Shown here: in pieces, positions 58,613 to 63,123 of the stretch
Numbering within the stretch: position 1 is the first letter of the stretch
Layout: each line of letters starts with the position of its first letter
Source of the DNA: Bdellovibrionales bacterium
Lineage (GTDB): Bacteria; Bdellovibrionota; Bdellovibrionia; Bdellovibrionales; UBA1609
Length of the DNA stretch: 64,000 nt
Reading direction: 5' to 3'
Assembly (NCBI GenBank): GCA_965203095.1
Contig: OZ241877.1
Coordinates: 256,001-320,000, forward strand
The notes under the pieces: model-generated
The model's database searches: none
Seen by the model: only the letters and a program-made list of their open reading frames with translations
What the model was told of the DNA's origin: nothing
Program-made: the position numbers and the translations under genes

Positions 58613-59083
58613 ATGAAAAATAATCAAGCAATGTTTTCATTTAAGATCGATGGGAAAGATTTTGAATTGCCTAAAGAAAAGGTGACTGCGAAACAAATTA
58701 TAGAACTTGCTAAAGAAAAAGGATTGCCAGAGGCAAATCTTCCTATTGAAGATCTGACATTAAAAAGCGGAAAAGATCTTTATTCAGGGAACGAAAATGT
58801 GGATTTATCAAAGGAAAATGTTTTCTCTCTGGAGCCAAAAAAGATATATAAATTTAAAGTCAACGGGCAAGAGATGGAATCCAAGGTTAAGAATCTGACT
58901 GCGAAACAAATTATAGAACTTGCTAAAGAAAAAGGAGCTACCCTCCCCGGTGACGAACAAAGCAATCTACTTGTAGAATCTGTGGGAAAACATCAGCGTC
59001 AATTTCAGCTGGAGGAAGAAGTTAATCTCAGCCAGTTTTGTGATTTTTTACTCATTTTGAATGAGCCAACTCCTGTTGCTTGA
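58613..59083 (+). CDS. Tandem (multi-)ubiquitin-like beta-grasp protein (BubA-like)
   Basis: Two ~71-aa repeats F.F..[D/N]G..TAKQIIELAKEKG..V[D/N]LS; C-terminus EPTPVA; RBS GGAGG; upstream of E2 and E1 genes. Confidence 0.75.
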   Translation: MKNNQAMFSFKIDGKDFELPKEKVTAKQIIELAKEKGLPEANLPIEDLTLKSGKDLYSGNENVDLSKENVFSLEPKKIYKFKVNGQEMESKVKNLTAKQIIELAKEKGATLPGDEQSNLLVESVGKHQRQFQLEEEVNLSQFCDFLLILNEPTPVA

Positions 59084-59120
59084 AAACAGGAAATTTTAAT
59101 CATATTGAGTCTGTATAAAA

Positions 59121-59507
59121 ATGTCTGCTTTGGAAAAAATAAAATGTGAATTAGAGGGCTTGAGCTATAGTCCCTTTTATATTGACACACCACAAGGTAA
59201 AACAGTGGTTATTAACTACCATGTATTGGTCGGCAAATATAAGGGAAAACAAATTCTCCTCGGATTTTCACTTCAGGAGGAAGGATATCCAGAATATCCT
59301 CCGCATTGGATCCATATCAGCCCACCTTATAATGATCAAAAGGGGGGAACCACACAAACTTACACCCATCCAGACAATAGGGGAGAAAACCAAGAATGGT
59401 TGGCCCTGAGTCGCCCTCCTCAAGATTTTTGGGATCAATTACCTACAAAACATATCAAACATTATTTGGATCTTCATATATCTCGTTTTTGTAAAGAATT
59501 AAAATGA
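59121..59507 (+). CDS. Prokaryotic E2/UBC-like protein (BubB-like)
   Basis: YPEYPPHWIH UBC-like signature; WLALSRPP..FW at the active-site position; ATGA overlap with the next gene. Confidence 0.72.
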   Translation: MSALEKIKCELEGLSYSPFYIDTPQGKTVVINYHVLVGKYKGKQILLGFSLQEEGYPEYPPHWIHISPPYNDQKGGTTQTYTHPDNRGENQEWLALSRPPQDFWDQLPTKHIKHYLDLHISRFCKELK

Positions 59508-61003
59508 GATATGAAGTTGCTTTTTGTGAAGAAGCCGAAAAACAGGCTCGTCAACATCTTTTATGGCATTTTCACAACGGCAATTTGCAAGAGGATCTTT
59601 GCTTTGCATTGTGGAGACCTGGCAAAGGGAAATCTCGCTATACAGGAATAATCTATAAAATAATTCTCCCAGAAAGAGACGATCGGACGCTCCATGGCAA
59701 TGTGGAGTTTGTTCCTCAATTCCTTTCCAGGGCAATCCATCAAGCTATAAGGGAAAAAGCAGGTTTGGCTTTTATGCACAGCCATCCAACAGATGGCTGG
59801 CAAGATATGAGCAAACCGGATGTGATTGCAGAAAGAGATGTGTTGTTCCCGCCCTCTATGGCCACCGGATTACCTCTATTGGGACTAACTATCGGAACAG
59901 ACGGTTGGTGGAGTGCTCGTTTTTGGAATAGAAAGAGAGGTAAAGCAAACCATCGTTGGTGTCAAAAAACAAGGGTTATTGGAAAAAATTTTTACAAAAT
60001 ATATTATAATGATCATATTCTATTGCCTCCCAAACGAAAAGTTTTTTTAAAAAGAACTTTTGACACTTGGGGAAAAAAGCATCAAAACAATATTGCACGA
60101 CTCAAAATAGGCATCGTGGGTCTGGGAAGTGTTGGCTCTATTGTTGCTGAAACTCTTGCCAGATTAGGAGTAAATAATATCGTTCTAATAGATCCAGATA
60201 AAATAAAAACTCACAATTTGGATCGCCTACTCTATGGCACAAAAAAACATATTGGCTGTTATAAGGTGGATGTGGCTAATCAGTTAATTAAAGAGCATTC
60301 AGTCGCTCATAAACTCAATATTGAGGCTCTTCCGTATTCTATACACCACGAAAAGGCATATTTTGCATCTTTAGACTGTGATTTTCTTTTCAGTTGTGTT
60401 GATCGACCTGTAGCGAGAGATGTTTTAAATTTCATCTCTTTTGCTCATTTAATCCCTGTTATTGACGGTGGGGTAAAAGTGACTTTAGACAAAAATGGGA
60501 ATTTTTACAGTTCTCACTGGCGGTCTCATCTTGTCACACCCTATCATCAATGTTTGCGTTGCAACAAACAATACACAACCAGTGGTGTCACGATGGAACT
60601 GGATGGCACATTGAATAATCCATCCTATATTCAAAATCTTCCCAAACCACTGAGATCTGAAAACCAAAATGTTTTCCCTTTCAGCTTGAGCGTTGCGGCA
60701 ATGGAGGTCAATCAAATGATTCGCTATATAATTTCCAGTGACTGGTGGCCAGAAGTCCAACAACAAGACTACCAATTTTTAACTGGATCAATTAAAATCA
60801 ATAATCAAAAATGCAGAAAGCATTGTGTTTTTCAGGAAGAAAGAATCGCAATGGGGGACAGATACAAGCCACATTATATTGTATCTACAAAAGGAGAAGG
60901 TTCAAAAGAAAAGAAATCTAAAATATTCAAGTTTATACCCTCTATAAACTGGATGATAAGCTTAATCACCAAACTTTTCGGTAAGGGATTTCGGAACAAG
61001 TAA
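59504..61003 (+). CDS. JAB/MPN metallopeptidase fused to a ThiF/E1 adenylation domain (BubCD-like)
   Basis: N-terminal E..HSHP......S..D JAMM motif; GLGSVGS, DPD.I...NLDR, CVD, CLRC and C..HC zinc ligands. Confidence 0.88.
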   Translation: MRYEVAFCEEAEKQARQHLLWHFHNGNLQEDLCFALWRPGKGKSRYTGIIYKIILPERDDRTLHGNVEFVPQFLSRAIHQAIREKAGLAFMHSHPTDGWQDMSKPDVIAERDVLFPPSMATGLPLLGLTIGTDGWWSARFWNRKRGKANHRWCQKTRVIGKNFYKIYYNDHILLPPKRKVFLKRTFDTWGKKHQNNIARLKIGIVGLGSVGSIVAETLARLGVNNIVLIDPDKIKTHNLDRLLYGTKKHIGCYKVDVANQLIKEHSVAHKLNIEALPYSIHHEKAYFASLDCDFLFSCVDRPVARDVLNFISFAHLIPVIDGGVKVTLDKNGNFYSSHWRSHLVTPYHQCLRCNKQYTTSGVTMELDGTLNNPSYIQNLPKPLRSENQNVFPFSLSVAAMEVNQMIRYIISSDWWPEVQQQDYQFLTGSIKINNQKCRKHCVFQEERIAMGDRYKPHYIVSTKGEGSKEKKSKIFKFIPSINWMISLITKLFGKGFRNK

Positions 61004-62076: not shown

Positions 62077-63123
62077 TTAAATAAACAATCTATTTTGGTA
62101 GTTTTTTAAATCATGGATTGTCTCTTCAGCAATTTCCGGTGCGATTTCATACCCCAGGCTGTTTCTTTGTAAATCCACAGCCGCCTTAACAGTGGTTCCA
62201 CTACCTAAGAAAGGATCCAAAACAACCTCGCTTATATAGGAAAAAGCTTTAATAATTCTATAGGGCAACTCATAGGGAAAAGGGGCAACATGAGAGCGAC
62301 GGTCCCCGCTTCCTTCTGGTTTCATCTTCCATACATCCGTATTCTTGACACTTAGCCAAAATTCCTTATCTAATTTGGAATCTTCTTTTTGTTGTTTTGT
62401 CAAATGGCTGTATTTATTAAATCCATTTTTTTCCGGTTTGTTAAATTCCAAAATGAACTCGTGCATATTGTTGATTAAAATTCCTCCCGGATAGGGATAA
62501 GTCCCAAAGTGGGCTTTCACTCCATTTGTTTTATGCCAAACAATATCTCTTTTAAAAACAAAGCCAATTTTCTCCATAATCTCTATTGTCTGTCCGGTTA
62601 AATTTAAAGTTTTAAATCCTTTACCTTCCCTTACCGGTAAATTCATTATATTTATAAAAGCCTTTCTCCCAGGTTGGAGAACTCTAAAAACCTCTTTCCA
62701 AACCTCTCCAATTTTTTCAAACCATTGATCGAGGTTATGAATATTGCCCAAATCGCCCCGGACAGGTTCTTTTGTATACATTTTGGCATTAAAATAGGGC
62801 GGGGAAGTGATCATCAAATGAACAGAGTTGTCTTTAAGATCCTTCATGCAGGTAGCGTCTTTTATATAAATTTTATGTAAAGAATTATTAAGTTTCAACA
62901 AGTTTTCTTTTTCAATCCTTTGCTTTTTTTCTTTCTTGATTTTAGGTCGATTTCTTTCATACTCTTTTAAGTCTTTCAGTTTAAATCTTTTCTGCCCGCT
63001 GGTGGAAAGCATGCTTTTAATTTGACTCTTTTTTACTAAGTTGTGCAGAGTTCTGACAGTAATTCCCAAATACTTTGCCGTCTCTATAGAAGACAAATAT
63101 TTTCTATCTTTATAATCGTTCAT
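62077..63123 (-). CDS. Beta-class amino-methyltransferase (N4-C/N6-A) with an N-terminal excisionase/MerR-like HTH
   Basis: LS..E.AKYLGI..RTL..G..RF HTH; ITSPPY precedes H.APFP and VLDPFLGSGTT. Confidence 0.9.
   Translation of the reverse strand: MNDYKDRKYLSSIETAKYLGITVRTLHNLVKKSQIKSMLSTSGQKRFKLKDLKEYERNRPKIKKEKKQRIEKENLLKLNNSLHKIYIKDATCMKDLKDNSVHLMITSPPYFNAKMYTKEPVRGDLGNIHNLDQWFEKIGEVWKEVFRVLQPGRKAFINIMNLPVREGKGFKTLNLTGQTIEIMEKIGFVFKRDIVWHKTNGVKAHFGTYPYPGGILINNMHEFILEFNKPEKNGFNKYSHLTKQQKEDSKLDKEFWLSVKNTDVWKMKPEGSGDRRSHVAPFPYELPYRIIKAFSYISEVVLDPFLGSGTTVKAAVDLQRNSLGYEIAPEIAEETIHDLKNYQNRLFI

Follow-up and report, generated by a model that had tools for sequence, protein, structure and literature searches.

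Organization of the locus

The window, a 64,000-nucleotide stretch of a Bdellovibrionales genome, contains a three-gene operon encoding a ubiquitin-like (Ubl) protein, an E2 and a JAB-E1 fusion, followed by a convergent gene of the DUF2971 family:

58613..59083, + strand: Ubl (BubA-like) gene, 156 aa, two Multi_ubiq beta-grasp domains
59121..59507, + strand: stand-alone E2 gene (BubB-like, UBC fold), 128 aa
59504..61003, + strand: JAB peptidase-E1 fusion gene (BubCD-like), 499 aa
60966..61970, - strand: DUF2971-family predicted ADP-ribosyltransferase gene, 334 aa, convergent to the operon

The coordinates, lengths, shared strand and ATGA overlap of the three operon genes given in a first-pass annotation were exact when the open reading frames were re-checked. 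The E2 and JAB-E1 frames share the ATGA at 59504-59507, and the last 38 nt of the JAB-E1 gene are shared with the transferase gene. The order of genes is grxD, Ubl/E2/JAB-E1, transferase, HTH-methyltransferase and pyrF. The annotated location between grxD and pyrF is literally correct, but this order is not kept in relatives. In none of 29 grxD loci of relatives does pyrF lie within 1.5 kb of grxD, and six regions of 8-10 kb around grxD in the same genus also contain no pyrF, so that the locus gives no evidence of an insertion into a conserved junction. The GC content of the operon genes is 35.9-38.3% and that of the genome 38.3%. No flanking repeats that would mark an insertion were found around the operon, promoter-like sites were not above chance (14 vs 17.2), and no CapH/CapP or WYL regulator is located upstream.

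The adjacent gene at 62077-63123 (- strand) encodes an N6/N4 DNA methyltransferase fused to HTH_17, next to which no restriction nuclease was seen. The same genome (G000) has nine more related methyltransferase matches elsewhere.

The family was analyzed as a set of 85 loci drawn from genomes, metagenomes and plasmids, none identical to another and each with a near-full E1. The metagenome relatives are the best 80 of 515, so the set is a sample. It was compared with 14 Type I and 5 Type II Bub loci. Type I Bub (6E.1/DUF6527; Citrobacter sp. RHBSTW-00271 BubAB-BubCD-BubE) consists of a Gly-ended Ubl(-E2), a JAB-E1 and BubE, and in Type II Bub (6E.2; E. coli ZDHYS365 BubA-BubBD-BubE) the E2 and E1 are fused, a JAB is lacking and BubE is present (Ye et al., bioRxiv 10.1101/2024.11.21.623953; this and the other published sources were available in part).

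Components of the operon

The Ubl matches the Pfam family Multi_ubiq (PF14452) over two stretches (E 1.5e-9, 38.4 bits, cut-off 24.5), in agreement with the two beta-grasp-like repeats noted earlier. Its N- and C-halves are 39% identical (E 8e-11). A perfect 41-nt direct repeat (58683-58723 and 58896-58936), one copy per beta-grasp domain, suggests a recent gene conversion or duplication.

The Ubl terminates as ...NEPTPVA-stop, Ala156 being the last residue. A Ubl was seen in 75 of the 85 family loci (8 of the 10 loci without one are at a contig edge), and none of these 75 ends in Gly. The family pattern is T-x-V-S/A; among 71 assigned Ubls the terminal residue is Ser in 52 and Ala in 19. Fifty-six of the 75 stop at this Ser or Ala, eight have short tails, eight are fused to the E2 and three end otherwise, and in the eight fusions the E2 follows directly after the same terminal motif. 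The short tails and fusions point to the end of the motif as the processing or reactive site. Ala156 is therefore predicted to be the reactive C-terminus, and, judged from its sequence, the Ala-ended Ubl should need no processing. Trimming to an internal Gly was ruled out for the window Ubl, which has no Gly near its end; the Ubls of four other loci (L085, L113, L088 and L112) have a Gly 2-3 residues before the end. A mature non-Gly end is shared with Type II Bub, in which the Ubls of the five loci compared end in TDKS or TGQS, with the pattern T-x-x-S, and in which a Ser-ended Ubl conjugates (Ye et al.; end sequence in Table S2). The non-Gly end is thus not new in itself, and the available text of the Bub papers does not pair it with the JAB-E1 architecture.

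The E2 gave only a sub-threshold Pfam match (Prok-E2_E, E 0.15). Neither PADLOC nor NCBIfam includes a model of the Ubl or the E2, and PDB sequence searches with the single Ubl, the single E2 and the E2 profile found no match. The AlphaFold model of the E2 (pLDDT 94.5) has BubB (9eav_D) as its best structural match (Z 8.8, rmsd 4.0, 114 residues aligned), followed by UBC enzymes. Foldseek with the same model returned nothing at E<=0.001, with BubB at rank 10 (E 0.2). The UBC-like character noted earlier thus stands, but the YPxxPPHWxH motif by which it was recognized is not the catalytic one; the conserved nucleophile is Ser97 (nt 59409) in the motif L-S-R-P-P. Ser97 is conserved in 76 of 77 family E2s and aligns with the serine of the Type I WSRH motif (hhalign, 98.4%), strong grounds for regarding it as the catalytic residue. 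His65 and Arg98 are found in 69 and 58 of the 77, in which no Cys is conserved. The second position after the serine is Pro in 52, Asn in 18 and Asp in 3, and never His, giving S-R-P/N where Type I has S-R-H. In Citrobacter BubB this +2 His is needed, as tested there only in the S333A/H335A double mutant (Ye et al.). The position of Type I Asp299 is occupied by Ser, His, Thr or Pro. The Type II and family E2 profiles did not align. A Type II-like His62 was considered as a family feature and rejected; it is present in 118/118 near-clade sequences and in only 23 of 77 family-wide.

The third protein joins a JAB peptidase to a single adenylation domain. The ThiF domain matches Pfam at E 3e-31, and Pfam JAB gives no match. 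The JAB residues E30, H92, H94, S103 and D106 are invariant in 119/119 close homologues, and the fusion of an intact JAMM motif to a ThiF/E1 domain, as first described, is confirmed by a full-length match to BubCD. By sequence the match to Citrobacter BubCD has E 2e-16 and by profile 2e-28; the structural model (pLDDT 89.2, falling to ~63 at residues 371-390) matches it over the full length (E 1e-31, TM 0.70-0.72, 21% identity). Across the 85 family E1s the JAB motif is conserved in 83, Arg241 in all 85, four cysteines (350/353/437/441) in 82 and Tyr375 in 84. The four cysteines are a probable Zn site. The JAB motif is intact in 56/56 loci in which the Ubl is already mature.

A Bub-like branch without BubE

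In a tree of adenylation domains (102 sequences, L110 left out) the family forms one clade, with SH-aLRT support of 100 and FastTree support of 0.76 when two haloarchaeal members are included, and 99.8 and 0.996 without them. In a 49-sequence subsample the support was 84/98 and 99.9/100. Because the tree is unrooted and does not group Type I into a clade, it is not read as an order of events. E1 identity is 20-26% to 12 Type I E1 domains and 16-19% to Type II. On haloarchaeal plasmids (L088, L112 and L110), Ubl-E2-JAB/E1 operons without BubE and with atypical Ubl ends are found at the edge of the family.

The operon resembles Type I Bub in gene order, in the full-length JAB-E1 fold, in the Ser at the catalytic position of a UBC-fold E2 and in the absence of catalytic cysteines. 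Having separate genes for Ubl and E2 does not set it apart, since some Type I operons have them too (Table S1 of Ye et al.; L090, L102 and L104). The differences are the Ala/Ser-ended Ubl, the E2 motif, the shifted register of the crossover tyrosine (see below), the separate E1 clade, the linked DUF2971 gene and the lack of BubE. A profile search found BubE/DUF6527 in 0/85 family loci and in 13/14 Type I control loci; in 71 of the 84 loci other than the window, the sequence continues for 600 bases or more past the E1 gene. This count rests on the profile with its controls, as a CxCGC motif scan missed annotated BubE in L090 and L102-104. DUF6527 was also not found in the window's own genome, which is 90% complete, and among five other carrier genomes it occurs only in G402, away from the operon.

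BubE is the deconjugase of Bub and is present in all catalogued Bub operons, the JAB seeming to act only as precursor processor (bioRxiv 10.1101/2024.11.21.623953). DUF6527 was the selection criterion of that catalogue (Table S1 header), which places the branch outside it. Class 6e was likewise listed with a metal-binding protein as a component (Iyer et al. 2006, PMC1779556). In the literature available no Bub type is described as lacking BubE or as linked to a transferase; the 231 CapK/CapS-linked Bub operons reported in EMBO J may include the branch. By its sequence features, the window operon appears Bub-like in its working and yet outside Types I and II as defined.

Among 401 genomes of the phylum the operon turned up in one, the window's own. 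In the host family it is present in 9 of 109 genomes, as 10 copies, in only two genera (locus L001 is the copy in genome G866). The patchy spread, together with Dehalococcoidia copies that are 54-55% identical, suggests that the operon spreads horizontally. No relatives were found in viral contigs or phage records.

The linked DUF2971 gene

The convergent gene product matches Pfam PF11185 at E 0.0016, under the cut-off; its homologue in L002 is above it, and the protein is assigned to Atlas DUF2971 clusters (0.96). There was no PDB sequence match. The protein has the motifs H81-Y82-T83, NDPxEG, S144 and E246-x-E248, and the H-Y, S and ExE motifs are kept in 42-45 of 46 sequences. The DUF2971 family is predicted to consist of ADP-ribosyltransferases (PMC12522546), and Aristaios is a single-gene lactococcal DUF2971 antiphage system (PMC11381338). 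The window protein shares with these the DUF2971 domain, the predicted ART fold and the ExE motif, and by analogy it is probably an ADP-ribosyltransferase. Unlike the window gene, Aristaios is a single gene, and the available text on it mentions no link to a Ubl operon.

The linkage of this convergent ADP-ribosyltransferase-like gene to a subtype of Bub-like operon is new here. The transferase is present in 11 of 18 near-clade operon loci and in 0/61 more distant loci, counts that include kin and are hence not independent. Of the seven near-clade loci without it, one shows just 204 bases downstream, and in another near-clade locus, L166, the transferase belongs to a broken second operon copy. 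In the 109 host-family genomes all four transferase genes (three of them inside the search profile, that of genome G870 outside it) adjoin the operon, and these are all the close copies. The six divergent operon copies in the family each have an AAA_15 ATPase gene and a ~165-aa gene, and no transferase; G870 carries both subtypes. In 401 Dehalococcoidia-class genomes, with 10 E2 matches, 4/4 transferase matches adjoin the operon, all four being inside the search profile. The association is seen in two phyla and in both orientations, the opposite strand being used in most loci. As a proxy only, 28 of 45 database transferase homologues have a longest contig of the same length as that of an E1 or E2 match, and by the same proxy 22 of the top 41 E1s in the protein database pair with a transferase and 24 with an E2. 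The linkage is thus real but runs one way: the operon is often without the transferase, yet the transferase subfamily was not seen apart from the operon.

Whether linkage means joint function is a separate matter. There is an even chance that the DUF2971 gene is an independent, Aristaios-like abortive-infection gene riding the same small mobile cassette, next to a conjugation operon that works as described here. The existence of a single-gene DUF2971 antiphage system favors this, as do weak matches to PDC-S31, a single-gene candidate, by 6 of the 11 transferases (best E 8e-7), a gene orientation opposite to that of the operon in most loci, a GC content of 29.5% against 36-38% for the operon and the lack of the gene in seven of 18 near-clade loci. 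Transferase and E1 distances are also not significantly correlated (rho 0.17, 253/2000 permutations, 20 pairs). Against it stand the complete lack of unlinked copies in both genome sets, the linkage across two phyla in both orientations and the pairing, by proxy, of homologues with E1 or E2. A complex prediction of JAB-E1, E2 and Ubl with the transferase scored 0.00 and was counted neither way. Functional coupling of operon and transferase, argued from gene linkage, is accordingly put forward tentatively, at somewhat less than an even chance.

L166 (G402:C1:1531000-1541500) contains an intact operon plus a rearranged, fragmented second copy whose transferase is intact. Besides these two, G402 has L002 as a third copy of the operon, and L114 is a Type II Bub of the same genome. 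In the sister subtype (L174 5119-6927, L175, L196-L199 and L012) the operon is followed by the AAA_15 ATPase gene and the ~165-aa gene; the product of the latter is PIN-like by eye and has no Pfam match at 1e-5.

Proposed mechanism

Matches to BubCD and BubB, in fold as well as in sequence, make Bub-like conjugation by the window operon quite likely. The first-pass annotation had recognized a Bub-like Ubl/E2/JAB-E1 operon, and this holds for all three proteins. It had missed the cysteine-free sites, the Ala-ended Ubl, the absence of BubE and the linked DUF2971 gene.

In the proposed scheme the Ubl would be made with its mature C-terminus, Ala156. The E1 domain would adenylate it using Arg241, by analogy with BubCD. 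The tag would then move, probably via a Tyr375 oxyester, to Ser97 of the E2, the Tyr relay being less firm than the Ser. The E2 would place the tag on target lysines without an E3. Finally, the fused JAB would take the tag off and so stand in for BubE. That the JAB is a deconjugase is favored by a narrow margin. The claim of a complete conjugation and deconjugation pathway holds for its conjugation genes; for deconjugation it goes beyond the gene content, the known deconjugase of Bub being absent, though the JAB may fill that role.

The relay step would depend on Tyr375 (nt 60626), which lies in the crossover loop, where there is no Cys. In Bub, oxyesters form on E1 Y370 and E2 S333 (bioRxiv 10.1101/2024.11.21.623953). 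Tyr375 does not align with the invariant Type I Y370 (13/13): both MAFFT and hhalign place it ~eight residues upstream, on a variable, non-catalytic Type I tyrosine (9/13), with a gap in the family at the Y370 column. Its distance to a conserved valine downstream is mostly 15-16 residues; in Type I the corresponding distance is 11-12. The alignment speaks for the absence of an E1 relay, with Ser97 attacking the Ubl-adenylate directly and Tyr375 being structural, an alternative that is nevertheless somewhat unlikely. Tyr375 is conserved in 84/85 E1s, above the upstream Type I tyrosine, and no other S/T/Y/C column in residues 358-392 comes near it. It is followed by I/L/V, as in the catalytic Y-I/V of Type I. 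The loop is moreover flexible in BubCD (Ye et al., bioRxiv 10.1101/2024.11.21.623953), and the model has low confidence there. A Tyr375 relay is thus considered fairly probable on these sequence features.

It is improbable that the system tags no protein and that C-terminus activation by the E1 serves sulfur transfer or ligation to a small molecule, lipid or nucleic acid. The native-host targets of Bub systems are not known, and the JAB-E1 is the sole ThiF/MoeB-like gene found in the 1.8 Mb, 90%-complete genome (tblastn E<=1e-4), which would suit such a role. On the other side, there are no rhodanese domain and no sulfur-pathway neighbors, NCBIfam ThiF/MoeB scores are far under the cut-off, the E2 serine is conserved and the distribution is patchy.

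A Bil-type or Cap2-type thioester system, for which the same gene classes, weak PADLOC E1-E2 matches confined to the Rossmann region and the match of the Ubl profile to the BilA structure (E 1e-4) could be cited, can be set aside as extremely improbable, since the crossover loop has no Cys, the E2 has no conserved Cys and the JAB is fused to a single adenylation domain, not IAD-AAD-CYS. Without catalytic cysteines the chemistry is not of the Bil/CBASS thioester type. Bil (BilABCD; Chambers et al., bioRxiv 10.1101/2023.09.26.559546) is similar in that a single operon encodes a multi-beta-grasp Ubl, an E2, a JAB and an E1; its Cys thioesters, trimmed Gly-ended Ubl and IAD-AAD-CYS E1, as described in the text available, are all absent here.

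The preferred reading is therefore that of a cysteine-free Bub-type conjugation system, in a branch without BubE, with exchangeable partner genes and a probable role in phage or stress defence. It is considered likely as a whole. A bolder version is unlikely, and as a joint claim is offered as speculation. It posits a third Bub type with an Ala/Ser-ended Ubl, a re-wired active site (a shifted or absent Tyr relay and a His-less E2 motif) and removal by the JAB, gating an exchangeable effector. That effector would be the DUF2971 ADP-ribosyltransferase here and the AAA-ATPase plus small gene in the sister subtype. If true, it would give Bub-type conjugation the output that it has lacked so far and connect an ADP-ribosylating immune effector directly with ubiquitin-like tagging. 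The three-gene system offers a minimal setting for examining non-glycine tag chemistry and the possible replacement of BubE by a JAB, and the linked transferase is a concrete candidate target or effector that makes Bub function directly testable.

Gene neighborhoods and function

A defence-type island, as first proposed, is plausible from family neighborhoods, but phage protection by Bub operons has not been demonstrated according to the available part of PMC13373217. Upstream genes at 58 family loci include, as they do for Bub, an IrrE/CapP-like peptidase in 14 and a WYL regulator in 2, and CD-NTase or CBASS, RM, DarT and AbiEii genes occur downstream in other family loci. With moderate confidence, a defence or stress role is proposed for the operon. 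The module would most likely serve against phage or stress with an exchangeable partner gene, which in the window subtype is the DUF2971 ADP-ribosyltransferase.

A SMODS CD-NTase gene directly follows the JAB-E1 gene in L037, L039, L044 and L066, with an S_4TM effector in L037 and L039. A complete patatin/CD-NTase/Cap2-like CBASS is located downstream in L060. GHKL or STAS-like (DUF4325) genes resembling the CapK/CapS regulators (PMC13373217) are found upstream in L028, L034 and L044.
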